Sequence record: NZ_CP013482.1
Strand: one strand, 5' to 3'
DNA length: 64,000 nucleotides
From: a plasmid
The position numbers were made by a program, and so were the translations under genes. The first letter of the stretch is position 1. Each line of letters opens with the position of its first letter. Below the pieces are notes generated by a model. That model saw only the letters and a program-made list of their open reading frames with translations, was not told where the DNA came from and did no database searches. This document shows positions 1,204 to 64,000 of the stretch, one piece after another.

Positions 1204-1205
1204 CG

Positions 1206-1250
1206 TCCCGAGTGCATATCGCCAGCCCCAGCGGCTGGCGATCCTCCTGA
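1206..1250. terminator. Inverted repeat (atcgccagc..gctggcgat) between convergent btuB and the resolvase; likely bidirectional terminator
   Basis: Stem-loop seen in sequence between convergent stops. Confidence 0.4.
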
Positions 1251-1268
1251 CGTAAATCAACAACGACG

Positions 1269-1979: not shown

Positions 1980-1985
1980 CTCGCT

Positions 1986-2309
1986 TTATCCTTCCGGGGA
2001 GATCAAAAAGCGATCCCGCTTTTTACCAACTATCCAAGCGGGCGCTCGCCCGCGACCACTCCATGTGGCACCCGAAGCAGGGTCCCGGTACTTAGCCGCA
2101 AGCGGGCCGCTGCGCTTGCGGCGCGCCCCAAATAGATCCCGCTCGGTCAATTGGTACTCAACGATAAGGCGTCGAACATCGGCCACAACACTGCCTTTTT
2201 CCGCCGCCAGTGCTTTAGCCGCCTCGGCTTCTAATGCCTCAACGCGCTTGAGGGTCTCTGCTTCAATTGCCTCGATCTGTGCGCGAATCTCTGCATATTT
2301 CTTCGTCAT
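1986..2309 (-). CDS. H-NS family nucleoid-associated protein (plasmid-borne)
   Basis: Coiled-coil N-terminus; C-terminal DNA-binding motif TWSGRGRAPAW typical of H-NS. Confidence 0.8.
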   Translation of the reverse strand: MTKKYAEIRAQIEAIEAETLKRVEALEAEAAKALAAEKGSVVADVRRLIVEYQLTERDLFGARRKRSGPLAAKYRDPASGATWSGRGRAPAWIVGKKRDRFLISPEG

Positions 2310-2399
2310 GTTATCTCTGTGTCAGCTTTGGTTATTTTTGATTCCGCTTGCCGGTTTATCTGCCTTGGTGGAAGCAATATCGCCGATGCGATTCCGGAA

Positions 2400-2584
2400 A
2401 GTCTCTCGGTCATTTTGGGTATACCTAATTTAACCATACGAATTTTAGTAGCCCAAATATACAAGAGGCAACTCAAAAAAGCCATCTATTTTTGGACCAC
2501 CTAAAAGAGCCTATTTTTCACTTGCGTCATTAGCTCAGGTTAGCTAATATGAGTCATCAAACCAAGGTTAGCTAAGGAGGTGCC
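2400..2584. promoter_or_regulatory. AT-rich divergent promoter region between the hns-resolvase operon and phd-vapC. Two TTAGCTAA palindromic cores (ggttagctaatat / ggttagctaagga) lie just upstream of phd
   Basis: AT-rich stretch; repeated 8-bp palindrome; SD aaggagg 7 nt before the phd ATG. Confidence 0.45.
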
Positions 2585-2821
2585 ATGCAAACCGTCAACA
2601 TCCACGACGCCAAATCGCAATTGTCGAAGCTCATCGAGCGCGCCAAGAGTGGCGAGGACGTTGTTATCGCCAAGGCGGGGGAGCCGGTCGCCCGTCTCGT
2701 CGCCTTCGTCCCGGCCAAGCCGGAACGCCGCTTCGGTGGCCTCAAGGGTAAGATCCGTATCGCTTCGGATTTCGACGACGCCTTGCCGGCCGATGTGCTT
2801 GCCGCGTTTGAGGGACAGTGA
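2585..2821 (+). CDS. phd: Type II antitoxin of the Phd/YefM family
   Basis: MQTVNIHDAKSQLSKLIERAKSGEDVVIAKAGEPVARLV, a classic Phd/YefM N-terminus; overlaps the downstream PIN gene by 4 bp. Confidence 0.8.
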   Translation: MQTVNIHDAKSQLSKLIERAKSGEDVVIAKAGEPVARLVAFVPAKPERRFGGLKGKIRIASDFDDALPADVLAAFEGQ

Positions 2822-3199
2822 TGCGCTTGCTTCTCGACACGCACGTTTTTCTGTGGGCTGTCACAGACGACCCGAAACTGAGCCTTGCTTCGCGTGAGGT
2901 TATTCAGTTGGCTGATGAGGTCTACGTAAGCGCCGCGAGCATTTGGGAGATTTCTATTAAGGCCGGTCTCGGCAAGATCGACGTCGATCCGACCGCCCTT
3001 ACGGCGGAGATACGCGCGGCTGGCTTTTTGGGAGTTGCCGATCACTACGGCGCATGCCGCCAAGGTATGCACACTGCCCGACATTCATCGTGACCCGTTC
3101 GACCGGCTGCTGGTCGCGCAAGCGATGTGTGAGCCGCTACAGCTATTCACAGCAGATGCCAATGTCTTGAAGTACACAGACTTGGCCTGGCGCGTGTAA
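2818..3199 (+). pseudogene. vapC: VapC (PIN-domain) toxin gene with a +1 frameshift in the GGG run at 3030-3032. Frame 1 ends at 3093; frame 2 continues ELPITTAHAAKVCTLPDIHRDPFDRLLVAQA to 3199
   Basis: N-terminal PIN motif LLLDTHVFLW; the locus length of 382 nt is not a multiple of 3; removing one G restores GFLELPIT..HRDPFDRLL. Confidence 0.6.
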
Positions 3200-9290: not shown

Positions 9291-9322
9291 TAATTATTGT
9301 GTTGCGCGCAACCCAATAATTA
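9291..9322. promoter_or_regulatory. 32-bp nested imperfect palindrome (taattattgtgttgcgcgcaacccaataatta) filling the gap between the acyltransferase stop and the next gene
   Basis: Seen in sequence; potential intra-operon hairpin. Confidence 0.35.
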
Positions 9323-11287
9323 AGGACGGCCGGTAATGATGGCCTCTAACTCCCCCGGTCGGCTCCGTCGGTACAGTTGATAGTAGTGGGCTCCGCCCTC
9401 AAGATTCAGGTGAGTGGTGTCGTTGCTTCTGTAAAGCGGGATGTTTCCGGCGGCCGTGGCACACATCCCATTACTACATGCGGCACCATACGTGTGCATC
9501 ACTTTCACCGCCGGCAGGCGGGCCGCCAAATTCCCTACAACCTCATGATTCGCCGCCTCAACGCCGGCCGCCGACTGGCGGCTGAATTCGCACGATCGAG
9601 CGAACGGTGACCACCTCAATCCGTTGTACAACGGACAGTTGATGAGCCCGTCAGGCATGGGGGGAACATCATCAAGGATGACGACTTGCTTGCCGGCGTC
9701 GAGCAGCGCCTTCGCCGTGCGGTAGAGATCCTCGTCAATCTGCTCTGGGCCAAACCCTCGCTCGTTACGCTTCACGTTTGACGGCGCTACGTACGCCCCC
9801 CATGTACCCGATAGGAAAACAACTTCAATGTCGCTGCTTTTCAGCAGATAGTTCATGACCAGTCGATCATGTTCGCGGCATGGTTCATCCATATTCGGCC
9901 GCGTGCCGATCGGAGGATCCGCGACCGGAGGGCAGAGCGGCCGCGCCATGTCGTGAACACTTAACCCGAACTCGTTGCCCAACTCCCGGAAGAAGTACAC
10001 GAAGTGATAGGCGTGAGAGTCGCCCCACAGGACGGCCTTTCTTCCGCCTGGCGCCCCGACAGAACATTTCGCTTCCGACGTAACCCCTACAGCCCCCCAG
10101 CACAGTGCCCCTCGTCCCTGCATCCAGTCACGGTCGGTCGACGCGGTATAGATTTCTCGAAATTGCTGGGGATACATGAACAGAAAGTTTGTGGACGTTC
10201 TTCCCACCGCCACAGTAGAAGCAGCAAGTGCGATCGGTGCCAGGATGTAACCGATCACGGCTCTCCTAAAGCTCACTCGCGCATAGCGCAACGGCTGCTC
10301 GACATACCGATGGGAAAGCGCAGCAACAACGAAACTCAACGCTACCGCGCAGACGATCGCGACGTCGCTCGTCAGCCCGAACCGCCGAAACGCAAAAAGT
10401 ATCGGCCAGTGCCAGAGATAGATGCCATACGACCGGAGGCCGATCCAGAGCGCAACGCGATTTCCAAGCACTGCACGGATCACTTTCGAGTCGTGTCCCG
10501 AAAGAATCAGCAGAGCAGCGGGCACCGTCGGGGCGAGCGCCCAAACTCCAGGGAACGGCTTTCCGCCAATAAAAGTGGCGCATGCCAGCACGCCAATAAG
10601 CGAGAGAACGGCTAAGAGTCCACGAGCGGTTCGCGCGCTATTCCACTGGCCTAGAAACGCAACTACAACGCCCAAGATGAACTCGAACGCACGATACTGG
10701 CTGAAGTAGTAAGCCCCTGGCGCTCCCGCGCGGACTGCCATCTCTGACCAAGCCAGAGACGCAAGCCCGAGTGCAATGAACGAAGCAATTTTGACGCGTG
10801 CTCGCGCATGACGAAGCCCAAACAACACCAGCGGAAACACCAGATAGAATTGCTCTTCGACCGAGAGAGACCATGTGTGAAGTAGCGGCTGTTGCTCCGC
10901 CGTCGGTGCGAAGTAGCCCGTCATCTTCGCCAGGTAGACATTCGATGCGAAGCCCGCGACGTAGGCCATGTTCTTGGCAACCTCCATCGCGTCGTCCGGG
11001 ATGAGAAACACCACGCTGAAAGCGAAGGTGACTGCCATCATCACGAACAATGCCGGAACTAACCGTTTCGCACGGCGCACGTAGAAGTCGCGGAAGCGGA
11101 AGTTCCCCGCCGCTTGAGCACTACAGATGCTCCGGGTGACGACGAATCCAGAGATTACGAAAAAGATATCGACCCCAACGAAGCCACCGGCGAGTTGGCT
11201 AACCCCAGCATGGCAGGCTACGACGAGAAGCACGGCGAGCGCGCGGAGGCCGTCCACGTCGGGACGATAGTTTTTATTGCTGGTCAT
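9320..11287 (-). CDS. Acyltransferase family 3 membrane protein with a C-terminal SGNH-like domain (OafA/YrhL-type O-acetyltransferase)
   Basis: N-terminal RPDVDGLRALAVLLVVACH motif; about 10 TM; 655 aa, the typical size. Confidence 0.8.
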   Translation of the reverse strand: MTSNKNYRPDVDGLRALAVLLVVACHAGVSQLAGGFVGVDIFFVISGFVVTRSICSAQAAGNFRFRDFYVRRAKRLVPALFVMMAVTFAFSVVFLIPDDAMEVAKNMAYVAGFASNVYLAKMTGYFAPTAEQQPLLHTWSLSVEEQFYLVFPLVLFGLRHARARVKIASFIALGLASLAWSEMAVRAGAPGAYYFSQYRAFEFILGVVVAFLGQWNSARTARGLLAVLSLIGVLACATFIGGKPFPGVWALAPTVPAALLILSGHDSKVIRAVLGNRVALWIGLRSYGIYLWHWPILFAFRRFGLTSDVAIVCAVALSFVVAALSHRYVEQPLRYARVSFRRAVIGYILAPIALAASTVAVGRTSTNFLFMYPQQFREIYTASTDRDWMQGRGALCWGAVGVTSEAKCSVGAPGGRKAVLWGDSHAYHFVYFFRELGNEFGLSVHDMARPLCPPVADPPIGTRPNMDEPCREHDRLVMNYLLKSSDIEVVFLSGTWGAYVAPSNVKRNERGFGPEQIDEDLYRTAKALLDAGKQVVILDDVPPMPDGLINCPLYNGLRWSPFARSCEFSRQSAAGVEAANHEVVGNLAARLPAVKVMHTYGAACSNGMCATAAGNIPLYRSNDTTHLNLEGGAHYYQLYRRSRPGELEAIITGRP

Positions 11288-11394: not shown

Positions 11395-12102
11395 TCAGAT
11401 CCGCGTCGCAAGCCAAACCACAGGATCAGAACCGGAAATCAACAGAAACAGCCCCGCACCCGACAGAAACGGGCCAAAAGGCAACACGTCTTCCGCGCGA
11501 CTACCCCATCTAATCACCGCGAGGAATAAGCCCGTCGCGGCCGCAATCAGGAGCATTGACGGAACTGAGGCGACGCCCATCCACGCGCCTATACCGGCGG
11601 CCAGTTTAAAGTCGCCCTGCCCCATGCCGTCCTCGCCTTTGCGGATCCGCCGGAATGCATTTACCGCCCAGAGCGCAGCAAAAGCCGCTGTCGCGCCGGC
11701 GACCGACTCGGCTACAGACGTGCGCCACCCCATCCAATTCGCAAAAATTCCGACGCCAATCAACGGGAGGGTGATGACGTCGGGAAGCATGAGTGTTTGG
11801 TAGTCGACGAGGGCAAGCAGGGTCAGCAACCATGCCAGAGTTGCCCCCACGACGACGATGCCCGCACTCTGACTTCTAGCCGTCAGAGCCGCACATATCG
11901 CGGCAAACGCTAAGGTGACGGCCGCTTTTGTACTTGCTTGGTACGCAACCCCCTCATCGCACTCGTTCTCGCATGCGAGAACCATTGCCGCTCGCGACGC
12001 CGCAGGGAAAAGGAGCGCCCCTGCGCAAAGCCCCGCAGCGCCACTCAGCACCAGGCTCAACAGGTTCATGACTGCGCTGTCCTGCTCCGTCCGTGCCACC
12101 AC
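11395..12102 (-). CDS. A24-family prepilin peptidase-like membrane protein
   Basis: Motifs LVDYQTLMLPD and GQGDFKLAAGIGAWMG (the two catalytic Asp motifs of PilD/TadV-like peptidases). Confidence 0.6.
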   Translation of the reverse strand: MVARTEQDSAVMNLLSLVLSGAAGLCAGALLFPAASRAAMVLACENECDEGVAYQASTKAAVTLAFAAICAALTARSQSAGIVVVGATLAWLLTLLALVDYQTLMLPDVITLPLIGVGIFANWMGWRTSVAESVAGATAAFAALWAVNAFRRIRKGEDGMGQGDFKLAAGIGAWMGVASVPSMLLIAAATGLFLAVIRWGSRAEDVLPFGPFLSGAGLFLLISGSDPVVWLATRI

Positions 12103-31989: not shown

Positions 31990-32949
31990 TTAGCGGGACA
32001 ATCCTCGGCCTTGATGCTGACCGACCGCCGCAACAACGGCACGCCCCGTGGTCTGATTGTAAGAGATAGATTTGCTGCTGCCAATTTCAGGGGATTTATC
32101 GAAATTAGACCGTTCATGAACGACAAACTGCTTCCCGACCTGCTGGAAAACACTAACCTTGTCGACGTGGACTATCGCACCTTCGGTTGTTGCCTTTCTG
32201 TCTGCTGGCACGGCCAGGGAAATGTTATAGATGCCTGGTTTAAGACCGTTCGCCTTATCCACCCGATCATTGCGCCAGGTTGGCTGCCCCGACGCATCGC
32301 TGGGTGGTTGCTCGCTTTGAACGATTCGTTGACCATTCATGACGAGTACACGGTGCTTCATGAATCCGCTCCTCGGTTCGTGGTACCGCCCTTGAATTGG
32401 AGCGATCACCGGTTCAATGATGGCGGCGAGCGCCTTCGAGTCCGCATTTACTACCGCCAAATCGCGCGCGAAGTAAAGTCGCGCTCTCGCCTCCCTGTCC
32501 ACAGGAAGCCGTGACCAGCCCAACTCAAATCCGGCCTGCATGGCCAGGTCTGATGTGAACTGTCGTAGCGTCCTGCTATTCCCCTCGCGAAACGGATGAA
32601 CTGCGTCCAGCTCACCGTACAAATGCGCTACCTTCGTTGCGAAGGCTCTCTGATCTAGTTGTTTTAAGTAGCCGTCTGCCGACAGGCTATCGAAGATTTT
32701 CGCCAGCTCAGGCACGACAGCGCGCAGGTCTCCGGCCCAGTCATACACCCCCTCAAAAATACGGCGGTGCGTCTCTCTCAGTCGGCCAGGGCCGAACGGC
32801 AATGTGATGGGGGAGGTTGCTATCGCGACAAGATTGAAAGCGACCATTTGCCCCTCAAAGGCATCTAGGTCGTGCTGCGTCCGACAGTCAGCCAGGTTTC
32901 TCAGGACTGTCGAACCGTCGTAGCAGTAAGGATCTCTGCGCGCCGTCAT
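31990..32949 (-). CDS. Fic-domain protein (putative AMP-transferase toxin) with a ~120-aa C-terminal extension
   Basis: Fic motif HPFREGNSRTLRQF (HxFx[DE]GN[GS]RxxR); overlaps the upstream antitoxin gene by 4 bp. Confidence 0.85.
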   Translation of the reverse strand: MTARRDPYCYDGSTVLRNLADCRTQHDLDAFEGQMVAFNLVAIATSPITLPFGPGRLRETHRRIFEGVYDWAGDLRAVVPELAKIFDSLSADGYLKQLDQRAFATKVAHLYGELDAVHPFREGNSRTLRQFTSDLAMQAGFELGWSRLPVDREARARLYFARDLAVVNADSKALAAIIEPVIAPIQGRYHEPRSGFMKHRVLVMNGQRIVQSEQPPSDASGQPTWRNDRVDKANGLKPGIYNISLAVPADRKATTEGAIVHVDKVSVFQQVGKQFVVHERSNFDKSPEIGSSKSISYNQTTGRAVVAAVGQHQGRGLSR

Positions 32950-51992: not shown

Positions 51993-52652
51993 ATGCCCGT
52001 CATCGAGATCCCCCAGCACCTGCCAGAGCGCGTCGCTTGCTCGATTGCCGCAGCGGTCAAATATGAGATCCCGGCAAATCTCATGCTCGCCGTTGCCGAA
52101 CAAGAGGGTGGCTCGCCTGGACTTGTGAAGCGCAACGGCGATGGCACTGTCGACGTCGGGTCAATGCAGTTCAACACCAAGTACCTCGCCGACTTGCGTC
52201 GTTACGGCATTTCGGCTGAGGACGTGTCCCAAGCCGGCTGCTATCCGTTCGACCTTGCCGCCTGGCGATTGCGTGGGCACATCCTGCGCGATGCGGGGGA
52301 TCTCTGGACGCGTGCGGCTAACTACCACTCGCGCACCCCTTCAAAAAACGCCACCTATCGCGCTTACATCCTGCCGCGTGCTGCGCGCTGGCAGAAGTGG
52401 CTCGAAGCGCGCTTCGTAACCTATGACTCCACCGCTGGCGTTGTCGAAATGCGTGTGCCAACGCAGGGTAGGGCAGAGCATGCCGGCACAAGTGAGTCCC
52501 CTGCCCTGCCCTCCACTGTTCCCCTCGGGGTGACGTCGAACGCCTTTCGGGTCGACCCCGCGAACACTCCAGCAGCCAAGGCACTCGCCACTGTCTACGG
52601 CCGCAATCTGAATGCGCCGTCAGATTCTCCCGGCACGGATTTTAGCCGCTAA
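51993..52652 (+). CDS. trbN: TrbN lytic transglycosylase (VirB1-like)
   Basis: SLT-like region GSMQFN; synteny. Confidence 0.75.
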   Translation: MPVIEIPQHLPERVACSIAAAVKYEIPANLMLAVAEQEGGSPGLVKRNGDGTVDVGSMQFNTKYLADLRRYGISAEDVSQAGCYPFDLAAWRLRGHILRDAGDLWTRAANYHSRTPSKNATYRAYILPRAARWQKWLEARFVTYDSTAGVVEMRVPTQGRAEHAGTSESPALPSTVPLGVTSNAFRVDPANTPAAKALATVYGRNLNAPSDSPGTDFSR

Positions 52653-52653
52653 A
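52641..52653. promoter_or_regulatory. KorB operator TTTAGCCGCTAAA overlapping the trbN stop codon
   Basis: Exact palindrome. Confidence 0.7.
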
Positions 52654-52656
52654 GCG

Positions 52657-53391
52657 ATGAAGAACTTGACCCAACTCACCGAGCTTCAACCTGCCAAAGT
52701 CGGCACCACACTGCCCCGTCTTCACCTCAATGACGGCGTGTTGGAATGCTGTAAGTGGTTGGCCCTGCTTTTGATGACCGGGGACCACATCAACAAGTAT
52801 TTGATGGGCGACTCCTCTCCGGTCCTATTCAACGCCGGCCGAGCGGCAATGCCGATATTCGTTTTTGTATTGGCATACAACTTGGCACGCCCCGGCGCAT
52901 TCGAGCACGGGACGTATCACCGAGCTATTCAGCGACTGGTGATTTCGGGTCTCGTTGCCACACCGGCTTTCATGGCGTTGGGTGGACTGCTGTCTGGGTG
53001 GTGGCCGCTGAACATCATGTTCACGTTGCTCACACTGACGTGCGTTCTGTATCTGTATGAGTCCGGCGGATCCGTCAACAAATTTACCGCAGCGGCCATC
53101 TTTCTCGCTGCCGGTTCGTGCGTTGAATTCTGGTGGCCGGCAATATCTCTCGGCGCTTCTGTTTGGTTTTACTCCAGGCGACCGAGTGTCGCCGCATTGG
53201 CAGTCGGCACCATCTCCTGCGCAGCGCTCTACTTCGTCAACTCCAACTTCTGGGCGTTCGCGGCTTTCCCGCTGGTCGCCTGCGTGGCGCGTCTGAATTT
53301 TCGCGTCCCACGAACTCGCTGGATCTTCTACACGTACTACCCCGCGCATCTGATCTTGCTCCTGCTGGCCCAGCAGACGCTTTCCCGATAA
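52657..53391 (+). CDS. trbP: TrbP (TraX-family membrane protein); the ORF extends to 52612
   Basis: Multi-TM protein; synteny at the end of the Tra2 operon. Confidence 0.65.
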   Translation: MKNLTQLTELQPAKVGTTLPRLHLNDGVLECCKWLALLLMTGDHINKYLMGDSSPVLFNAGRAAMPIFVFVLAYNLARPGAFEHGTYHRAIQRLVISGLVATPAFMALGGLLSGWWPLNIMFTLLTLTCVLYLYESGGSVNKFTAAAIFLAAGSCVEFWWPAISLGASVWFYSRRPSVAALAVGTISCAALYFVNSNFWAFAAFPLVACVARLNFRVPRTRWIFYTYYPAHLILLLLAQQTLSR

Positions 53392-53496
53392 GACCGCCCA
53401 AAGAATAACCACCACTCAACACGAGTGTCGCGGGTGATAAAGCGCATTTGTTTAGTTGTACTAATTACCTTCGGCATATATTACGAGGACGTTGAC

Positions 53497-56400
53497 ATGA
53501 AAATTCGCATTTCTCGCGATCTTTCAAGGAGAATCCGGGCCGGCTTCTGCGCCGGGTTGGTTCTCCTCTCCTCGCTGCAACCGTGCTTTGCTGCCGCCAA
53601 TTTGGACGACGTGGTCAAGGCAAATGCCGCGTGGGTTCCGAAAGATCACATCAATCAGGCTGAGCTACAGGACAAAGAAAAGGACGCTGCCGACAAGGAG
53701 CGTATCCAGGGCGAATGGAGTGCGCTGGACGTTTCTCTCGCCCGCGACCCGCTCGGCGCAGCAAAGCAACGAGCTACCGGCGCGGCGACCGAAGCCGCAC
53801 AGCGGATGTTGAATCAATTCGGCTCTGCCAAGCTGTCCTTGGGTGCCGGAGACGGCTTTAAGAACGGCAGTCTGGATGTGCTGCTTCCGCTTCGAGACAC
53901 CGACAGCAATCTCACCTTCACGCAGCTCGGCTTCCGCCGATCGAATGCGTTGTCCGACAGCTACCGTTCGACGTTGAACATCGGTGTTGGACATCGACAC
54001 TTCTTCAACGGTGGCAAATGGATGATCGGGGGGAATGCCTTCTTTGATCATGACATTTCCCGAGACCATCTTCGCGGTGGTCTCGGCCTTGAGGCATGGA
54101 CTGATTACCTGCGTCTGTCCGCCAATGCCTACCTGCGCATGAGCGGGTGGCAAGACTCTCCGGATATTCGCGGCTATATGGAGCGTCCTGCGAACGGCTG
54201 GGACGTTCGCGCCGAAGGATATTTGCCTGCATTCCCTCACCTTGGCGCACGCCTCTACTACGAACAGTATTACGGCCAGAAGGTCGGGCTGTTCGGTACT
54301 GGAAGTTTGCAGCGCAACCCCCATGCAATTACTGTCGGCCTCACTTATCAGCCAATCCCGCTGTTTTCATTGGATCTCGACTATCGCGCCGGCCAGGGTG
54401 GCGTGTCACAGACGACGGTTCGTGCGAACCTGACTTACAAAATTGGCGTTCCTCTCGATAAGCAATTGCGAGCCTCATCGGTTCGCGATTCAAAGCTCTT
54501 GAAAGGCAGTCGTTACGAGCTGGTCAACCGGAATAACGAGATCGTTCTGGAGTACCAAAAGAAGGAAGCTCGCCTGACAATCCCGACTCAAATTAGCGGG
54601 TATCCGGGCACAAGCACGACGTTCGCGGTCAACTCGTACACAGCCCTTGGGTTCTCATCTTTTGCCTGGACTGGTACTGCTGCGTCGTTTGTTCAATCAT
54701 ATTCCGGCGGAACCGCTACGCTCGCGCTTCCTTCCTACAACCAGAGTGGAACCAATACGTACACTCTCCAAGCGGTTGCCACTGAGACGGATGGCGCTGT
54801 CGCACGATCCAACGTCATGACGGTGACTGTAAATCCGCTGTCGGTAAGTCTCGATCGGAGCAAACCTACCGCCTCCGCTGATGGGCGCGACTCTGTGACG
54901 TTTACCGCCACTGTGATCGGGACCAACTCTGAACCTCTTGCCGACCAGGCAGTTGATTGGAAAATTCCGGCCAGCGCTACCGTTGTTTCCTTAATGGCGC
55001 GCACAAACAAGGCCGGGAAGGCTGACGCGATTGTCACGGCGAAGTCTGCCGCCGTGATTCACGTCACTGCGACCTCAACGTTGTCCGGCGAGACGGCATC
55101 CAATTCCGCAGCGTTCATAGGCGATCCTACGACGGCTGGCGTTGCTACGCTTGTGGCTCAACCTACCGCGATCGCCGCTAACGGCACGAGCAAATCGATA
55201 TTGACGGCGACATTGAAGGACGCCAAGGGCATCACGCTTGGATATGGCGTTCCGGTCAAGTGGGCGACGACCCTTGGCACATTGTCCGCCGACACGAGTG
55301 TCACCGATTCCAACGGCCAGGCCGTCGTTACACTGACCTCGGCTACGACGGCGGGCACGGCCACGGTGACGGCTTCCGCTATCGCTGGCAATAAAACGGC
55401 TGACGTTGCATTTACGCCGGATGTGGCAACAGCAAATGTTGCCTCGCTCACGGCTGCGCCGGCAGCGATCCCCGCCAATGGCGCCAGTAAATCGACGCTG
55501 ACGGCGACTATCAAGGACGCGAACGGAAACACGGTGGGCGCCGGTATTCCTGTCAAGTGGCAAACAACCGCCGGCACGCTTTCGGCTGCGAACTCGCAGA
55601 CCGATACGTCAGGCGTTGCAATCGTAACGCTTACCTCCGCGACCGCCGCAGGGATTGCGAACGTGACCGCCACGACCACGGCGGGCAACAAGACCGCACC
55701 TGTTGCGTTTGTGCCGGACACTGCCACGGCTGGCGTGGTGTCGCTCGTGGCGAATCCGACCAGCATTGCGGCCAACGGCAGCAGCACGTCCGCACTGACG
55801 GCCACGGTCAAAGACGCGAGCGGCAACACCGTAGGTGCTGGGGTCACGGTGAACTGGTCGACCTCGGCCGGTAGCCTGACGGGCACGTCGAGCGTGACCG
55901 ACGCCAGCGGCATCGCCACGATGACCCTTAAGTCAGCAACGACGGTCGGCGTCGCTACGGTATCGGCAACGGCCGTCGCAGGCAGCAAGACGGCCAACGT
56001 GACCTTTGTGCCGGACACGGCTACGGCTGGTGTGGTGTCGCTCGTGGCGAATCCGACTAGCATCGCAGCCAACGGCAGCAGCACATCCACGCTGACGGCC
56101 ACCGTCAAGGATGCTTACGGCAATGCGGTGGGTGCTGGCGTCACCGTGAACTGGTCGACCTCGGCCGGTAGCCTGACGGGCACATCGAGCGTGACCGACG
56201 CCAGCGGTATCGCCATGATGACGCTCAAGTCGGCAACGACGGCGGGCACAGCCACGGTAACGGCAGCGGCAGTCGCCGGCAGCAAGACGGCCAACGTGAC
56301 CTTTGTGCCGGACATGACTACTGCGGCCGTGGTGTCGCTCGCGGCGAATCCGACCAGTATTGCGGCCAACGGCAGCAGCACTTCCGCTCTGACGGCCACG

Positions 56401-58158
56401 GTCAAGGATGGCAACGGTAACGCAATGGGTGCCGGCGTCACCGTGAATTGGACGACCACGGCGGGTAGCCTGGCGGGCACGTCGAGCGTGACCGACGCCA
56501 GCGGCATCGCCACGATGACGCTCAAGTCGGCAACGACGGTCGGCGTCGCCACGGTAACAGCAGCGGCCGTCGCCGGCAGCAAGACGGCCAACGTGACCTT
56601 TGTGCCGGACACAGCCACGGCGGGCGTCGTTTCGCTCATGGCGAATCCGATCAGCATCACGGCCAACGGCAGCAGCACGTCCGCACTGACGGCTTCGGTG
56701 AAGGATGCGAGCGGCAACACCGTGGGTGCTGGTGTCACCGTGAACTGGTCGACCACGGCCGGTAGCCTGACAGGTACGTCGAGCGTGACCGACGCCAGCG
56801 GCATTGCCACGATGACGCTCAAGTCGGCTACGACGGCGGGCACGGCCACGGTAACGGCTGCGGCCGTCGCCGGTAGCAAGACGGCCAGCGTGGCGTTTGT
56901 GCCGGATACGGCCACGGCGGGCGTGGTGTCGCTGGTGGCGAATCCGACGAGCATTGCGGCCAACGGCAGCAGCACGTCGACGCTGACCGCCACTGTCAAG
57001 GACGCCAACGGTAACGCCTTGGGGGCCGGTATCGCTGTGAACTGGTCGACCACGGCGGGGAGCCTGACGGGAACGTCGAGCGTGACGAACGCTAGCGGCG
57101 TTGCGACGATGACGCTCACATCGCCCACGACGGTCGGTGTCGCCACGGTAACGGCTGCGGCGGTCGCCGGTAGCAAGACGGCCAGCGTGACGTTTGTTGG
57201 CGATCCGGCAACGGCCCGCGTGGTCAGCCTGACGCCGCCGACTGCCACTGCATATGTTGGCGGGATTGCGACCACGTACACGGCCACGGTGAAGGACGCC
57301 AACGGCTTCACGGTTGGGGCCGGTGTCTCGGTCACATGGTCTGTGAGTGCCGGAACGCCGAGCGCCACCAGCACCGTGACTAATTCATCCGGTCAGGCGT
57401 CGATCAACGTTGTATCACCGAACGTGGTCGGTAGCGGGACGATCACGGCCAGTGCCGTCGCTGGTTCAGCGAATGCGACGATCAACTACGTTGCCAACAT
57501 GAACACCCTGCGCGTTGTTTCTTTGTCGCCCAACATGAACAATGTCCCGGCAAATGGAAGCTCAACGGTGATGTTGCTTTCGTCTGTGCGCGACGCATGG
57601 GGCAACAATCCGGGCGCGGGAGTCACGGTCAACTGGTCGGACTCGTTGGGGCGCTTGTCGGCGGGAGCTACGGCCACTGACGGGAACGGAACGGCGGTGA
57701 ACTACCTGACGGCCCCCGGAGCGGCGGGCACCTCGTCCGTGAACGCGAGGATCGCGGCTACTGGTGACGGCGGTGTAGGCACAGCCGTTACGTGGGTGAG
57801 TACCTTTAGCGCTGCGAACGTCAGTGTGTCAACGTCGCCGGATATGCAGCCGAACGCGAACGGCATCCTGTACGTGAGCGGCTTCATCACTACGGCAACG
57901 CAGTCCTCTAGCGGGACGGTGTACATCACCGGCATCACCTACAACAACAGCTATGGCTCACAAAGTGCGTACATGGAAATCAACGGCGGCACCTATTGGG
58001 CCAACGCATCCGGCCTCTCGATTCCTTGGGGGTCGGGTGGGTCACTGGTGATACAACAGCACGAGGGCACGGGCATGGTTCCGGCCGTCTTCCAGTCGGT
58101 CACGTTGTCGCTTAGCACGGGACAAACGGTCACGCTTAATAGCGGGTCGGCACAGTGA
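53497..58158 (+). CDS. Giant inverse-autotransporter (intimin/invasin-family) adhesin: signal peptide, N-terminal beta-barrel, about 11 bacterial Ig-like (Big_1) repeats, unique C-terminal domain. The ORF extends to 53425
   Basis: Beta-barrel region ending ..LTYQPIPLFSLDLDYRAG..; tandem 99-aa repeats (VSLVANPTSIAANGSSTS..TLTATVKDA.GN..GAGV.VNWSTTAGSL). Confidence 0.8.
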   Translation: MKIRISRDLSRRIRAGFCAGLVLLSSLQPCFAAANLDDVVKANAAWVPKDHINQAELQDKEKDAADKERIQGEWSALDVSLARDPLGAAKQRATGAATEAAQRMLNQFGSAKLSLGAGDGFKNGSLDVLLPLRDTDSNLTFTQLGFRRSNALSDSYRSTLNIGVGHRHFFNGGKWMIGGNAFFDHDISRDHLRGGLGLEAWTDYLRLSANAYLRMSGWQDSPDIRGYMERPANGWDVRAEGYLPAFPHLGARLYYEQYYGQKVGLFGTGSLQRNPHAITVGLTYQPIPLFSLDLDYRAGQGGVSQTTVRANLTYKIGVPLDKQLRASSVRDSKLLKGSRYELVNRNNEIVLEYQKKEARLTIPTQISGYPGTSTTFAVNSYTALGFSSFAWTGTAASFVQSYSGGTATLALPSYNQSGTNTYTLQAVATETDGAVARSNVMTVTVNPLSVSLDRSKPTASADGRDSVTFTATVIGTNSEPLADQAVDWKIPASATVVSLMARTNKAGKADAIVTAKSAAVIHVTATSTLSGETASNSAAFIGDPTTAGVATLVAQPTAIAANGTSKSILTATLKDAKGITLGYGVPVKWATTLGTLSADTSVTDSNGQAVVTLTSATTAGTATVTASAIAGNKTADVAFTPDVATANVASLTAAPAAIPANGASKSTLTATIKDANGNTVGAGIPVKWQTTAGTLSAANSQTDTSGVAIVTLTSATAAGIANVTATTTAGNKTAPVAFVPDTATAGVVSLVANPTSIAANGSSTSALTATVKDASGNTVGAGVTVNWSTSAGSLTGTSSVTDASGIATMTLKSATTVGVATVSATAVAGSKTANVTFVPDTATAGVVSLVANPTSIAANGSSTSTLTATVKDAYGNAVGAGVTVNWSTSAGSLTGTSSVTDASGIAMMTLKSATTAGTATVTAAAVAGSKTANVTFVPDMTTAAVVSLAANPTSIAANGSSTSALTATVKDGNGNAMGAGVTVNWTTTAGSLAGTSSVTDASGIATMTLKSATTVGVATVTAAAVAGSKTANVTFVPDTATAGVVSLMANPISITANGSSTSALTASVKDASGNTVGAGVTVNWSTTAGSLTGTSSVTDASGIATMTLKSATTAGTATVTAAAVAGSKTASVAFVPDTATAGVVSLVANPTSIAANGSSTSTLTATVKDANGNALGAGIAVNWSTTAGSLTGTSSVTNASGVATMTLTSPTTVGVATVTAAAVAGSKTASVTFVGDPATARVVSLTPPTATAYVGGIATTYTATVKDANGFTVGAGVSVTWSVSAGTPSATSTVTNSSGQASINVVSPNVVGSGTITASAVAGSANATINYVANMNTLRVVSLSPNMNNVPANGSSTVMLLSSVRDAWGNNPGAGVTVNWSDSLGRLSAGATATDGNGTAVNYLTAPGAAGTSSVNARIAATGDGGVGTAVTWVSTFSAANVSVSTSPDMQPNANGILYVSGFITTATQSSSGTVYITGITYNNSYGSQSAYMEINGGTYWANASGLSIPWGSGGSLVIQQHEGTGMVPAVFQSVTLSLSTGQTVTLNSGSAQ
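55100..57230. repeat. About seven tandem 297-bp in-frame repeats within the adhesin gene; the last five (55711..57196) are nearly identical at the nucleotide level
   Basis: Period of 297 bp measured between recurring tttgtgccggaca.. landmarks (55711, 56008, 56305, 56602, 56899). Confidence 0.85.
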
Positions 58159-58175
58159 TCTAGGCCCAGCAGATT

Positions 58176-58215
58176 CCCCTTTGAGGCGGGTGGAGAAATC
58201 CACTCGCTTTTTTTT
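58176..58215 (+). terminator. Rho-independent terminator after the adhesin gene (GCGGGTGGAGAAATCCACTCGC + T9)
   Basis: Hairpin plus T-run. Confidence 0.65.
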
Positions 58216-58321
58216 ATTTATTTGTTGTATTCAACAGATAAATAAAATACACTTGATTCCAAGGTCGCGAACAGAGGTCGTGACGACAATCGAAGTCAAA
58301 TTTACCGAGAGGAACAACACC

Positions 58322-59083
58322 ATGATTTTCCCTGTTATCGTTTTGGCACTTGGCTTGAACGGCGTCGTCCAAGGCAACATCAACGACCACGGGACGCACG
58401 AGAAAGAAATTGAGGCCACTCAGATCCGCGAGCTTCGCGACGCTCGCGCTGCGAATCAGTGGTGCCGTGACAATGACCGCAGCCGCCAGAGTAACGGCAA
58501 CTACATCAATTGCGAGCCTTACGAGGAACTTTACCTGACGCGTTTGAATGATCGTCGCGAAACGTTGATCGCCCAAATCGCGGAAAAGCGGGGTGCGGCT
58601 GTGGCATTGAAGGCTGCGACGCCGAGTGCCGACGAGGCGGCGGTGGCCGATATCGGTTTCTTCGGAAAATTGGGCAACTATATGGGTACACCGGTGACTA
58701 CCGCGATGGTTGCATACCAAAATCAGAACGAGTGCCTAGAAGATGTGCGCGATGGTGACGGCGACGATTGCTCGGTTCTTGCGGCACGGCTAAAAGTCGC
58801 GGTGCGGGGGGCTCAGGAATATCGCGAAAAGCTGATTGCGGAAGGCCCGGGCTTCCTGCGTGACCCAAGCCACCGACTCATCATCACAATGGAAAGTGAT
58901 GAACTAAAAGCCGCCGCTGCGGCGATCACGGCGAAGGTGAACGCCGAGCAGTCGTTGGCCGATTGCGGGGCCGGGCTGGCGATCGGCCGTCGCTCGGACT
59001 GCACCACGCAAAGCGTCATCTATCACTCGGCAGTCGATAGCCTCGACCGTGCGTCAACGGCAAAGCCGGCCACCTCGGAATGA
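58322..59083 (+). CDS. Secreted Cys-containing hypothetical protein (254 aa) with its own AT-rich promoter region
   Basis: Signal peptide MIFPVIVLALGLNGVVQG; ORF. Confidence 0.45.
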   Translation: MIFPVIVLALGLNGVVQGNINDHGTHEKEIEATQIRELRDARAANQWCRDNDRSRQSNGNYINCEPYEELYLTRLNDRRETLIAQIAEKRGAAVALKAATPSADEAAVADIGFFGKLGNYMGTPVTTAMVAYQNQNECLEDVRDGDGDDCSVLAARLKVAVRGAQEYREKLIAEGPGFLRDPSHRLIITMESDELKAAAAAITAKVNAEQSLADCGAGLAIGRRSDCTTQSVIYHSAVDSLDRASTAKPATSE

Positions 59084-60495: not shown

Positions 60496-62349
60496 ATGCA
60501 AACGAAACTCGCGGCCGGCGCTGCCGCGCTCGCGCTCATTTCCTCGCCGCACGTTGCAACAGCCCAAACCGCCGACGACACAGGCAGCGCGGTACTGCCC
60601 AAAACCGTTGTCACCGCCGACAGGGCACCCCAACGCCTTCAGGACGCTATCCCACAGACCACGCTTATCGACAGCCAGGCGATCACGGATTCCGCCGCCA
60701 ACGACCTGCCCGGCCTGCTGCGCTTGGCACCGGGCGCTCAGGTCGTCAGCAACGGTGGGCCGGGGTCTACTTCAAGCCTATTCCTTCGCGGCTCGCAAGC
60801 CAGCCAGTCGCTCGTCCTTATTGACGGCGTGCGAGTCGATTCGGTAAGCGCCGGCTCAGCGCAGATTTCGCAAATCCCACTCGATCAAATCGATCATATC
60901 GAAATCGTGAACGGCAACGTGTCTGCGCTGTACGGGTCAGGGGCGATTGGGGGCGTCGTTCAAATATTCACGAAGGACGGCGGCAATCATCCGCCTAAAT
61001 TCTTCGCCTCGGCAGGGTACGGCAGCTATCACACACAGACGCAGAATGCCGGCGTAAGTGGTGCGCTCGATGCCGACGGTCGGACGACTTTTAGCGCGTC
61101 CCTGGCGCGGTACAAGACCGATGGTTTTTCATCCATCGACCCGGCCAAGCAACCAAGCGTAAACCCGAACGCCAACGGCTACCTCAACGAGAGTGGTAGC
61201 GCATCTATCAAACACCGATTCGTGAACGGTTGGGACGTGGGTGTCCGCTACTTTCAATCCAACGGCTACAACAGCTACGACAATGCTTACGGCCAACCTA
61301 CCGACTTGAACTACGGTATTAGCAAGGTGCAGCAGGCATCCGTTTTCGCCAACGGAAACGTAACCGACTGGTGGAAAACGCACGTTACGATCGCAGCCGG
61401 CAACGACCGTAGTATCCAGAAAACGAACGGCCTCTATAACGGCCGGTTTGACACGGACAATAGGCAATACACATGGCAGAATGATTTCGCCATCGCCAGC
61501 GGCCAGAAGATCCTCGCGGGCTATGAACACCTCGACCAGAGCTTTGATTCTAGTGCCTATGCCGCCCCCTCCCGTCGCGTCGACTCAGGCTTTATCGGCT
61601 ACAACGGGCGCTTTGGTGCTCATCAGTTTCAAGCTAACCTGCGGCGCGACCAGTACTCCGATTTCGGCGGTGCAAGCAGCTATTACCTCGGGTACGGCTA
61701 CGACATAACTGATAGCTGGAAGGTTCTTGCGAGCTATTCGGACGCCTTCCGCGCGCCGACCTTCAACGACCTGTACTACCCCTACGGCGGCAACACCAAC
61801 ATTCGCCCAGAGACAAGTCACTCCGTCGAAGCTGGAGTGCAGTACGCCACCGACGCGCTTGGCGTGATGCGTTTGACAGTGTTCCAAACTCGCTACTCGA
61901 ATCTCATTCAGTATGCGTCAGACCTTGCGGGCAACTACACGGCACAGAATGTGGGCACGGCCAAGGTGCAGGGCCTGGAAGGCTCTTGGAGTGGGCAGGT
62001 TTACAAGACCGACGTGCGCGCTTCTTTCACTTTCCAAAATCCTGTGAACGAGGACACGCATACCGATCTGAGCCGCCGCGCACGGCACTTCGCGTCGTTC
62101 GCTGTCAACCGGAACATTGAGAGTGTGCGCGTGGGCGCTGAATGGATTCTGAGCGGTGCGCGGCTCGATGGCACCAAGCACCTCGGCGGATACGGCCTAG
62201 TGAACCTGTCGGCCCGCTACAACATCACAAAGGCGTGGTACGTCGCCCTGCAAGTGCAGAATCTGCTGAACAAGGATTACGAGCTTGCCTACTCGTATGA
62301 AACGCCCAAACGCAGCGCTTTCATCACTCTCGGCTGGCAGCAATTCTGA
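60496..62349 (+). CDS. btuB: TonB-dependent outer-membrane receptor, BtuB-like (617 aa)
   Basis: Signal peptide; TonB box KTVVTADR; plug motif GGPGSTSSLFLRGSQASQSLVLIDGVRV closely matching BtuB; C-terminal aromatic; riboswitch upstream. Confidence 0.8.
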   Translation: MQTKLAAGAAALALISSPHVATAQTADDTGSAVLPKTVVTADRAPQRLQDAIPQTTLIDSQAITDSAANDLPGLLRLAPGAQVVSNGGPGSTSSLFLRGSQASQSLVLIDGVRVDSVSAGSAQISQIPLDQIDHIEIVNGNVSALYGSGAIGGVVQIFTKDGGNHPPKFFASAGYGSYHTQTQNAGVSGALDADGRTTFSASLARYKTDGFSSIDPAKQPSVNPNANGYLNESGSASIKHRFVNGWDVGVRYFQSNGYNSYDNAYGQPTDLNYGISKVQQASVFANGNVTDWWKTHVTIAAGNDRSIQKTNGLYNGRFDTDNRQYTWQNDFAIASGQKILAGYEHLDQSFDSSAYAAPSRRVDSGFIGYNGRFGAHQFQANLRRDQYSDFGGASSYYLGYGYDITDSWKVLASYSDAFRAPTFNDLYYPYGGNTNIRPETSHSVEAGVQYATDALGVMRLTVFQTRYSNLIQYASDLAGNYTAQNVGTAKVQGLEGSWSGQVYKTDVRASFTFQNPVNEDTHTDLSRRARHFASFAVNRNIESVRVGAEWILSGARLDGTKHLGGYGLVNLSARYNITKAWYVALQVQNLLNKDYELAYSYETPKRSAFITLGWQQF

Positions 62350-62351
62350 CG

Positions 62352-62396
62352 TCCCGAGTGCATATCGCCAGCCCCAGCGGCTGGCGATCCTCCTGA
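62352..62396. terminator. Bidirectional terminator-like inverted repeat between btuB and the resolvase (copy of 1206..1250)
   Basis: Inverted repeat. Confidence 0.4.
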
Positions 62397-62414
62397 CGTA
62401 AATCAACAACGACG

Positions 62415-63125
62415 TTACTTCCCATTTTCCGAAACGCCGAACTCAGCGGCTTCGCCATCTCGCGTGCAGGAAGCCCAAATTCGCTTAACCTGGCTGATAC
62501 TGCATCCCGCCATACGCGCTGTTTCAGCGATGGTGTGTCCAGCTTTCCTAAACGCGATAACGCGCTCGTTCACGGCAGTATTGGGCTTGCGCCCACGATA
62601 CTTTCCAGCAGCTCGGGCAAGAGTTATGCCCTGCGCCTGGCGCTGCCGCCGGGTCTCATACTCGTCACGGGCCATCTGCAAAGCGAGCCGCATGAGCATT
62701 TGCTGCACCGACTCAAGGACAACCCGAGCAACGCCCTCCGATTTCTCGGACAACTCCGACAAATCGATCACACCAGGCACGGCCAACGTCGCTCCTTTGT
62801 CGCGTATCGATCCAATCAGGCGCTCGGCGTCGGGCAATGGAAGGCGACTAATGCGATCAATTTTTTCCGCGATGACCACATCCCCCGGTTGCAGGTCAGC
62901 AATCATTCGCAGTAGCTCTGGTCTATCCACGCGGGCACCGGACGCTTTCTCACGGTACACACCTGCTACGTAGTACCCTGCCCTCCTCGCCTCGTCTACA
63001 AGCCCCTCTTGCCTCTCTATGTCCTGTTGCGCAGTGCTTACGCGCAAATAGATTCGGGCGACCTTGATAGCCGCCCGATCACGCTTGCGAGAAGCGGCGG
63101 TTTTGCTCGTCTGACGCGCGACCAC
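62415..63125 (-). CDS. Serine recombinase/resolvase (same gene as 1269..1979 through the wrap)
   Basis: Identical protein. Confidence 0.85.
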   Translation of the reverse strand: MVARQTSKTAASRKRDRAAIKVARIYLRVSTAQQDIERQEGLVDEARRAGYYVAGVYREKASGARVDRPELLRMIADLQPGDVVIAEKIDRISRLPLPDAERLIGSIRDKGATLAVPGVIDLSELSEKSEGVARVVLESVQQMLMRLALQMARDEYETRRQRQAQGITLARAAGKYRGRKPNTAVNERVIAFRKAGHTIAETARMAGCSISQVKRIWASCTRDGEAAEFGVSENGK

Positions 63126-63131
63126 CTCGCT

Positions 63132-63455
63132 TTATCCTTCCGGGGAGATCAAAAAGCGATCCCGCTTTTTACCAACTATCCAAGCGGGCGCTCGCCCGCG
63201 ACCACTCCATGTGGCACCCGAAGCAGGGTCCCGGTACTTAGCCGCAAGCGGGCCGCTGCGCTTGCGGCGCGCCCCAAATAGATCCCGCTCGGTCAATTGG
63301 TACTCAACGATAAGGCGTCGAACATCGGCCACAACACTGCCTTTTTCCGCCGCCAGTGCTTTAGCCGCCTCGGCTTCTAATGCCTCAACGCGCTTGAGGG
63401 TCTCTGCTTCAATTGCCTCGATCTGTGCGCGAATCTCTGCATATTTCTTCGTCAT
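63132..63455 (-). CDS. H-NS family protein (same gene as 1986..2309)
   Basis: Identical protein. Confidence 0.8.
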   Translation of the reverse strand: MTKKYAEIRAQIEAIEAETLKRVEALEAEAAKALAAEKGSVVADVRRLIVEYQLTERDLFGARRKRSGPLAAKYRDPASGATWSGRGRAPAWIVGKKRDRFLISPEG

Positions 63456-63730
63456 GTTATCTCTGTGTCAGCTTTGGTTATTTTTGATTCCGCTTGCCGG
63501 TTTATCTGCCTTGGTGGAAGCAATATCGCCGATGCGATTCCGGAAAGTCTCTCGGTCATTTTGGGTATACCTAATTTAACCATACGAATTTTAGTAGCCC
63601 AAATATACAAGAGGCAACTCAAAAAAGCCATCTATTTTTGGACCACCTAAAAGAGCCTATTTTTCACTTGCGTCATTAGCTCAGGTTAGCTAATATGAGT
63701 CATCAAACCAAGGTTAGCTAAGGAGGTGCC

Positions 63731-63967
63731 ATGCAAACCGTCAACATCCACGACGCCAAATCGCAATTGTCGAAGCTCATCGAGCGCGCCAAGAGTGGCG
63801 AGGACGTTGTTATCGCCAAGGCGGGGGAGCCGGTCGCCCGTCTCGTCGCCTTCGTCCCGGCCAAGCCGGAACGCCGCTTCGGTGGCCTCAAGGGTAAGAT
63901 CCGTATCGCTTCGGATTTCGACGACGCCTTGCCGGCCGATGTGCTTGCCGCGTTTGAGGGACAGTGA
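63731..63967 (+). CDS. phd: Phd/YefM antitoxin (same gene as 2585..2821)
   Basis: Identical protein. Confidence 0.8.
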   Translation: MQTVNIHDAKSQLSKLIERAKSGEDVVIAKAGEPVARLVAFVPAKPERRFGGLKGKIRIASDFDDALPADVLAAFEGQ

Positions 63968-64000
63968 TGCGCTTGCTTCTCGACACGCACGTTTTTCTGT
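63964..64000 (+). CDS. vapC: 5' end of vapC (truncated by the window end)
   Basis: Identical to 2818..2854. Confidence 0.5.
   Translation, partial: MMRLLLDTHVFL

Follow-up and report, generated by a model that had tools for sequence, protein, structure and literature searches.

A predicted inverse-autotransporter adhesin with an orphan tip domain behind the Tra2 operon of the IncP-1-like plasmid pPA35 of Pandoraea apista

Pandoraea apista DSM 16535T harbours the plasmid pPA35 (accession CP013482), which carries, directly behind the last gene of its Tra2 conjugation block, a gene whose product is predicted from sequence, with high confidence, to be an intact type Ve surface adhesin, that is, an inverse autotransporter (IAT) of the intimin/invasin family. 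The gene (53497..58158, + strand, 1553 codons plus stop; defined from the open reading frame (ORF), Pfam and NCBIfam) lies in the 64,000-nucleotide stretch of sequence record NZ_CP013482.1 analysed here, hereafter the window, to which all coordinates refer. The overall explanation that we put forward, that pPA35 encodes an intact, stably long type Ve adhesin with a role in attachment, we rate at about even odds. An earlier reading of the same DNA made without database searches (the sequence-only reading) had proposed that the gene is a recently expanded, length-variable locus, and this proposal is weighed below against the divergence of its repeats.

The domain architecture of the protein is that of an inverse autotransporter. 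Its N-terminus forms a predicted Sec signal peptide (53497..53598, + strand; MKIRISRDLSRRIRAGFCAGLVLLSSLQPCFA with cleavage before AAN), judged by eye from the translation by its basic n-region, hydrophobic core and small-residue c-region. Further along is an IAT beta-barrel translocator domain (53752..54537, + strand; residues 110-371), which matched Pfam IAT_beta (PF11924) over model positions 23-279 of 279 (E 3.6e-88, 296.2 bits against a cut-off of 22.3) and, by sequence, the solved barrels of invasin (4E1T, E 1.2e-66) and intimin (4E1S, E 1.2e-61). The C-terminal passenger comprises 10 Big_1 stretches (E 3e-128) and 9 Invasin_D3 stretches according to Pfam, while a self-profile of the repeat unit recovered nine tandem units of 98-99 residues (residues 540-1421) and two weaker Ig-like domains upstream of them, 11 domains in total. 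These two membrane-proximal domains (54580..55113, + strand), with weak self-profile matches at residues 392-432 and 455-534, resemble the D00 and D0 domains of intimin (structures 6TQD and 6TPL). The protein therefore combines an N-terminal barrel scoring above threshold, a Sec signal recognised by eye and a Big_1/Invasin_D3 passenger at its C-terminal end, and its 4.66-kb frame runs without interruption, the Pfam domains being matched at full length. In this respect the sequence-only reading was borne out: it had described a Sec signal, an intimin/invasin-type barrel (the peptide that it quoted is present in the translation) and about 11 Ig-like domains, of which nine proved strong and two weak by self-profile, and both its barrel and its Big-domain assignments exceeded the Pfam thresholds.

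Within the family, narrower models did not capture the protein. The NCBIfam model intimin_all gave 402.8 bits against a cut-off of 1400, the NCBIfam models for SinH, Ilp, YrIlm, IatC, Inv and YchO/YchP all scored below their cut-offs, and Pfam found neither a LysM domain nor the intimin C-terminal (C-type-lectin-like) domain. By these profile comparisons, the adhesin is predicted to belong to the IAT family while lying outside both the strict intimin/invasin group and every named NCBIfam IAT family.

The passenger ends in an orphan tip domain of about 122 residues (57790..58155, + strand) that is probably all-beta and is presumed to be a ligand-binding module. When 1.84 billion representative proteins were scanned exhaustively with HMMER, the tip had only two matches, an 89%-identical orthologue fragment, carried by a 2.2-kb contig that comes from a different sample, and a marginal match (E 5e-4). 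The tip was absent from all of the 120 best homologues, had no sequence match in the PDB and matched nothing in Pfam above threshold (best DUF4859, E 0.018). The C-termini of homologues consist of more Big domains or of unrelated small tips. Comparison with the orthologue gave 0.48 synonymous (dS) and 0.064 nonsynonymous (dN) substitutions per site, and the resulting dN/dS of 0.13 points to a conserved, functional domain under purifying selection. The sequence-only reading had looked to structure prediction of the C-terminal region to identify the binding module, and in this it was disappointed. AlphaFold2 reached a mean confidence (pLDDT) of 34 for the tip and preceding Big unit as a single sequence and of 49 for the tip with a two-sequence alignment, the latter model being all-beta with 9 strands. 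A Foldseek search of the pLDDT-49 model against the PDB gave nothing at E ≤ 1e-3, and the generic beta-sandwiches that Foldseek offered as tip fold (TM 0.3-0.45) were rejected as uninformative. As an orphan under purifying selection, the tip is a candidate new binding fold.

The position of the gene suggests how it may be expressed. The ORF extends from a GTG at 53425 (53425..58158, + strand), but the true start is likely the ATG at 53497, which has a GAGGA Shine-Dalgarno sequence 7 nt upstream and is also the gene call, with a 1553-residue product, in the independent assembly GCA_001049515.1. Existing calls differ over 53425-53557. The GenBank call (AT395_25065, 'hypothetical') has 1533 residues, and its start would remove the basic n-region of the signal peptide; a RefSeq call has 1553 residues and is labelled 'Ig-like / invasin domain 3-containing protein', and a second RefSeq call has 1001 residues and starts within R1, the first of the tandem repeat units. 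Upstream lies trbP, the last gene of the Tra2 mating-pair-formation block (52612..53391, + strand; Pfam TraX, E 1.7e-45), which is separated from the adhesin gene by a spacer of 105 nt (53392..53496, + strand) containing the Shine-Dalgarno sequence and an inverted repeat, TTAGTTGTACTAA (5-3-5, 53452-53464). A promoter and terminator scan of the spacer found no terminator-like site on the + strand and no sigma-70 consensus; the sites touching it were two weak - strand hairpins at its edges (53427-53413 and 53519-53505). Downstream, an intrinsic terminator (58183..58220, + strand; hairpin at 58183-58210), made up of a 12-pair stem and a T-run behind it, begins 25 nt past the stop codon. The sequence-only reading was thus right to place the gene first behind Tra2 and to give it its own terminator. 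The absence of a + strand terminator or consensus promoter from the spacer makes transcriptional read-through from the trb operon plausible, and this arrangement, together with the same-strand 105-nt gap and the strong terminator behind the gene, suggests that the adhesin is probably co-expressed, at least in part, with the trb operon under KorB control. The GC content of its third codon positions (0.72) resembles that of the backbone genes.

Two short elements of the spacer were also considered. The inverted repeat TTAGTTGTACTAA occurs once in the window and, in the loci fetched for comparison, again only in the other assembly of pPA35 and in one unrelated locus, and was therefore rejected as a plasmid-wide operator. 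A 10-mer, TTTAGTTGTA, about 47 nt upstream of the ATG (53450-53459), is shared with a metagenomic I-type locus (L004), where it stands at the same distance of about 47 nt from the IAT start, and could be a conserved promoter or 5'-untranslated-region element, or a chance match. The reverse-strand ORFs that cross the adhesin gene are best read as artefacts, as had been supposed, because they lie wholly within a gene with Pfam support of E 3e-128; codon-position GC failed to discriminate between them and the adhesin gene, and the Pfam evidence was used alone.

The KorB control invoked above reflects the nature of the replicon. In addition to a TrfA-type initiator (RPA), KorB, IncC/ParA and KleE, the pPA35 backbone encodes an ArdC-type TraC-like protein, a topoisomerase, TraF, TraG and TraI in its Tra1 block and has trbB through trbP as its Tra2 block. 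The KorB operator TTTAGCSGCTAAA is present in 10 perfect copies in the window (at 23539, 28490, 30833, 30935, 33257, 35520, 40284, 40722, 48867 and 52641), compared with about 0.8 expected even with two mismatches allowed, and the last of these (52641-52653) lies at the trbN/trbP junction. All the elements of an IncP-1-like backbone (KorB operators, TrfA, KorB/IncC, Tra1 and Tra2) are therefore present, and the 10 operators mark pPA35 as a predicted divergent IncP-1-like plasmid with a KorB regulon. This classification is absent from the published description of the plasmid. The TrbE protein is just 59-63% identical to the TrbE of any PLSDB plasmid, which places pPA35 in a divergent lineage. 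Similarly, the Tra2 region gave only short megablast matches of 70-83% identity in PLSDB, and megablast of the adhesin gene gave none there, so that pPA35 itself is outside that collection. The paper describing pPA35 reports zero predicted resistance genes, in agreement with the earlier view that the plasmid carries no selectable resistance, and does not mention the adhesin gene (PMC5064223).

IAT genes were found beside transfer genes on a range of other plasmids. PLSDB contains 606 plasmid records with a relative of the IAT barrel, 383 of them predicted to be conjugative. The nine best full-length homologues in a collection of 5.8 billion proteins are 41-55% identical to the adhesin, and six of the nine adjoin conjugation genes of P-type, VirB/TrbM-type or I-type systems, while several homologues adjacent to a type IV secretion system (T4SS) lie on the same strand 61-400 nt downstream of a transfer gene. 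For example, the IAT gene is located between trbM and trfB on an IncP-like plasmid of Pseudomonas viciae, abuts Tra1 on a plasmid of P. chlororaphis, follows VirB6-11, the type IV coupling protein (T4CP) and TrbM after 129 nt on a plasmid of Pseudomonas sp. BRG-100, and follows VirB8-11, T4CP and further genes after 83 nt on a plasmid of Paraburkholderia tropica. Of the two metagenomic cases, one is a contig with VirB11 and TrbM, a 400-nt gap and the IAT gene, then KorA, OprD, TrwC and T4CP, and the other an I-type cluster with the IAT gene flanked by an exclusion gene on one side and a DotM-like gene on the other. The remaining three homologues are one contig of unclear replicon type and two chromosomal loci. 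In addition, a Bordetella flabilis plasmid has the order DotA/TraY, EAL-domain gene, IAT, and a Halopseudomonas contig from a metagenome-assembled genome (MAG) has trbF to trbN, 98 nt and the IAT gene, the same order as pPA35, with Trb proteins just 34-68% identical to those of pPA35. Among species-representative genomes, 3 of 80 IAT loci were T4SS-adjacent, the Halopseudomonas contig being one of the three, and no locus of the enterobacterial-type clades was. On these comparisons the association between IATs and transfer genes appears to be recurrent, not universal; literature searches found no published link of inverse autotransporters with conjugation or with IncP or IncI plasmids.

A bootstrapped neighbour-joining tree of the barrel core placed all T4SS-adjacent IATs of beta-proteobacteria and pseudomonads in one clade (85% bootstrap), which also holds chromosomal Achromobacter genes. 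A separate clade with 100% support, nested within the enterobacterial group, holds the barrels from the IncI2 and IncIγ/K plasmids of E. coli, which indicates independent recruitment. Two loci of these plasmid types each encode a 1074-residue IAT on the strand of the neighbouring transfer gene: on an E. coli IncI2 plasmid (CP101950.1, locus L095) it stands 61 nt behind the T4CP gene, and on an E. coli IncIγ/K1 plasmid (CP057903.1, locus L096) 108 nt behind TrbC and a PLD gene.

The function of the adhesin is inferred from its family to be adhesion. By analogy with family members, the signal peptide would route the protein through Sec, the barrel would insert into the outer membrane and the C-terminal passenger would be threaded out through the barrel by hairpin secretion. 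The 11 Ig-like domains would then form a rod about 40 nm long, by analogy with invasin, holding the 122-residue all-beta tip beyond the lipopolysaccharide layer for ligand binding, with the repeats setting the length of the stalk and not acting as a slippage-prone switch. The role that we consider most likely is that donor cells attach in this way to other cells or to surfaces, in aggregates or biofilm; such attachment would raise contact and thereby the transfer and persistence of a rigid-pilus plasmid. Rigid-pilus plasmids, e.g. IncP, mate poorly in liquid. Natural IAT adhesins located where transfer operons end would offer plasmids of several families a simple, testable answer to this contact problem, and exchangeable tip domains could tune recipient range. 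A role that serves the plasmid is favoured because of the comparative pattern described above and the precedents, compared below, of the RSP/RSP2 proteins, of synthetic adhesins and of E. coli IATs. Stabilisation of mating aggregates by the adhesin is plausible, with support that is comparative and not functional, while a specific link of the adhesin to conjugation we put forward only tentatively, as a possibility with the odds against it.

Several observations weigh against a role in transfer. IncP-1 plasmids classically carry their cargo between Tra2 and Tra1, and any gene on a plasmid of 50-60 kb is likely to be near a transfer gene by chance; transfer genes fill a large share of small plasmids. 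Subclade support around the pPA35 gene is weak (43-66% bootstrap), and relatives without an adjacent T4SS include the chromosomal Achromobacter genes and the proteins P0008 and P0010. Plasmid-borne IATs away from any T4SS also occur, on an Achromobacter plasmid, an IncY phage-plasmid and aerobactin-linked Salmonella plasmids and at a ZirU-type locus. In the homologue at L004, the IAT gene has a terminator-like hairpin before it, so that co-transcription with transfer genes is not general, and the tips differ among homologues, which argues against a shared receptor. Finally, the E. coli IATs that have been tested gave biofilm, not autoaggregation (PMC6714894).

A second explanation is that the gene is ordinary host-benefit cargo, a colonisation adhesin for host tissue, mucus or abiotic surfaces that sits among other niche genes at the IncP-1 accessory site and plays no special part in conjugation. 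We consider this a serious contender, with a probability a little short of even and nearly as likely as the plasmid-serving role; the two are not mutually exclusive. The strain came from cystic-fibrosis sputum (PMC5064223), the neighbouring genes include those for a TonB-dependent receptor, an AT3-SGNH acyltransferase and a prepilin peptidase, many of the 606 PLSDB plasmids with IATs have them in virulence contexts, e.g. beside aerobactin genes, and there are close chromosomal relatives with no T4SS nearby. Moreover, the characterised IATs are host or biofilm adhesins (PMC6714894). Simple cargo accounts less well for the recurrence of IATs on the same strand behind or inside transfer operons in at least four T4SS lineages and two separate IAT clades, or for the Halopseudomonas relative, where the order of Trb genes followed by the IAT gene has been kept although the Trb proteins have diverged to about 50% identity, suggesting a long association and not a recent cargo pick-up.

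The view that the gene is a length-variable contingency locus fares much worse. The passenger repeats comprise R1 and R2 (55114..55707, + strand; 297 bp each and about 60% identical to R3-R7), R3-R7 (55708..57192, + strand; five units of 297 bp), and the diverged units R8 (294 bp) and R9 (57193..57759, + strand; self-profile E 2.7e-24 and 2.4e-20). Tandem 297-bp units are therefore present as the sequence-only reading had stated, but whether seven are counted is a matter of the threshold applied: in all, nine are in register, and R1 and R2 are only about 60% identical to R3-R7. It had also held the last five units to be near-identical in DNA and recently expanded, and hence the gene to be a contingency locus in which repeats frequently recombine or slip to give a population of mixed lengths. 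The unit is indeed in frame (297 bp, 99 codons) and five similar units are adjacent. However, Tandem Repeats Finder reported 5.0 copies of period 297 over 55708-57197 with 85% matches and zero indels, and in-register pairwise comparison of R3-R7 gave 82-88% identity in DNA and 83-92% in protein, with a longest identical run of 46 bp. The differences are mostly synonymous and at third codon positions (e.g. 6/4/27 at positions 1/2/3 between R3 and R4). Nei-Gojobori estimates among R3-R7 were 0.35-0.73 for dS, 0.05-0.10 for dN and 0.09-0.22 for dN/dS, and synonymous sites of R1 and R2 were saturated relative to the other units. Such values indicate long divergence with no homogenisation, and point to old duplications, each kept by purifying selection, instead of a recent expansion; with tracts of identity this short, R3-R7 would be poor substrates for slippage or efficient homologous recombination.

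Comparisons between assemblies and among related proteins agree with this. The deposited record, assembled from PacBio reads, was compared with GCA_001049515.1, a hybrid assembly for which the LMG stock of this type strain had been sequenced with Illumina and MinION (PMC4972773), the two coming from separate culture-collection stocks. Window positions 43497-64000 are 100% identical in the two, and the adhesin gene is identical over 4662/4662 nt, so the repeats are unchanged between two culture-collection lineages and are not an assembly artefact; collapse of the repeats in an independent assembly, which the sequence-only reading had named as a possible refutation, did not occur. No repeat-length variants were present in a collection of 15 billion proteins, in which one strain is represented, the 90%-identity protein cluster consisting of three alternative gene calls of a single sequence. 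Among related proteins, differences by whole Big units do occur (P0009 versus P0018, by about 108 residues; P0002 versus P0006; P0021 versus P0092), a point in favour of variable length, and Big-domain number appears from them to evolve on a phylogenetic timescale. In E. coli, variation in the repeat number of IatC and IatD was not seen by Goh et al. (PMC6714894). We conclude with good confidence that the adhesin gene shows no contingency behaviour and give the contingency reading very little credence. The correction matters because repeats that are old and individually conserved offer no basis for a phase-variable or contingency label. An assembly artefact or decaying pseudogene is more improbable still, since, although the deposited record has an assembly problem elsewhere (a duplicated end) and a related metagenomic contig breaks at the repeats, the gene is the same in the independent hybrid assembly, its 4.66-kb frame is open with full-length Pfam matches, and both repeats and tip bear the mark of purifying selection.

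The duplicated end concerns the size of the replicon. Window positions 83-2854 equal 61229-64000 exactly, while positions 1-82 differ from the other end by two small indels, so that a plain circular wrap of the window had to be refined. In the independent assembly, the replicon is a contig of 61,272 bp that reads directly from window position 64000 into about 2855. The duplication and this continuity together suggest that the deposited 77,293-bp record of pPA35 probably contains an untrimmed terminal overlap of about 16.1 kb, of which 2.85 kb is visible in the window (1-2854 and 61147-64000), and that the true plasmid is about 61.15 kb.

Other genes around the adhesin are mostly accessory. Directly downstream is a gene for a small protein with several cysteines (58322..59083, + strand; about 250 residues) and a signal-like N-terminus, MIFPVIVLALGLNGVVQG, and no family match in Pfam. 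The region past the adhesin stop codon is 73% identical in nucleotide sequence to that beside the adhesin orthologue on a metagenomic contig (L089), and this synteny suggests that the small protein may be a functional partner of the adhesin. Further downstream are genes for a TonB-dependent receptor (60496-62349, + strand), a resolvase, an H-NS-like protein (63132-63455, - strand) and a PhdYeFM/PIN toxin-antitoxin pair. The H-NS-like protein may be relevant to how the adhesin gene is regulated. The accessory genes between Tra2 and Tra1 include, besides the TonB-dependent receptor and the H-NS-like protein, those for an AT3-SGNH acyltransferase (9320-11287, - strand) and an A24 prepilin peptidase (11395-12102, - strand). 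In the central control region, an ORF at 31990-32949 (- strand) combines a Fic/DOC domain with a KfrB domain, an unusual fusion.

Compared with known systems, the adhesin is an unnamed member of the intimin/invasin family, and its RefSeq label is already that of an Ig-like/invasin-domain protein. With invasin (Yersinia InvA) and intimin (Eae) it shares the signal peptide, the N-terminal IAT barrel and a Big_1/Invasin_D3 rod that ends in a tip. It differs from both in having 11 Ig-like domains where they have 4-5 and in being encoded on a betaproteobacterial plasmid behind a conjugation operon and not in a context of type III secretion and Tir or on a chromosome; in addition, its orphan tip stands in place of a C-type-lectin tip, and the LysM domain of intimin was not detected in it. 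The long E. coli and Salmonella IATs YeeJ, FdeC, SinH and IatB/C/D likewise have many tandem Big_1 domains, and their barrels are 41-51% identical to that of the adhesin, but the adhesin belongs to another barrel clade (85% bootstrap) and has a different tip. For E. coli IatB, IatC and IatD, a role in driving biofilm formation has been reported (PMC6714894). The closest relatives, at 45-55% identity, are unnamed IATs of Pseudomonas viciae and P. chlororaphis, strain BRG-100, Paraburkholderia tropica, Bordetella flabilis and the Halopseudomonas MAG. Like the adhesin, these plasmid-borne IATs neighbour Trb, VirB or Dot/Tra genes, in most cases sharing their strand and standing where the transfer cluster ends, whereas they differ from it in the number of Big units and in their C-terminal tips.

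Two systems outside the family provide precedents for a role in conjugation. RSP, RSP2 and ALG87338 (IncHI1 R27 and IncA/C) are also large Big-domain proteins encoded in or near plasmid transfer regions, and the adhesin gene, which follows trbP on the same strand after 105 nt, shares this location. RSP and RSP2 promote conjugation of IncHI and IncA/C plasmids (PMC8730810); for these Big-domain proteins, binding to pili and flagella has been reported, as has a requirement for them if conjugation at 25 °C is to be efficient (PMC8730810, PMC6764697). RSP-type proteins are reported to leave the cell via the plasmid T4SS, in a paper that describes no IAT barrel for them; the adhesin, by contrast, has its own Sec signal and type Ve barrel, and the latter argues for a different export route. 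The second precedent is artificial, the synthetic adhesins called 'mating assemblers', which are reportedly displayed on an intimin scaffold. Placed on the donor, such outer-membrane adhesins raised liquid mating of rigid-pilus plasmids (IncP, IncN and IncW) by 1-3 logs (PMC9825185), which is the mechanism that we propose for pPA35. They are engineered and their cognate antigen is placed on the recipients, whereas the pPA35 adhesin is natural and its ligand only presumed. We offer as a conjecture, which we think more likely wrong than right, that IATs are a recurrent accessory module of conjugative transfer regions, acting as donor-encoded mating or aggregate adhesins and recruited independently at least twice. 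The recruitments that we propose, with the same reserve, would be one on IncP-1-like, VirB/TrbM-type and I-type plasmids, within the clade of beta-proteobacteria and pseudomonads, and one on the IncI2 and IncIγ/K plasmids of E. coli. If this were true, the IATs of transfer regions would be to nature what the synthetic adhesins are to engineering, and the type Ve equivalent of the RSP Big proteins, with variable tips that would set recipient or surface specificity.

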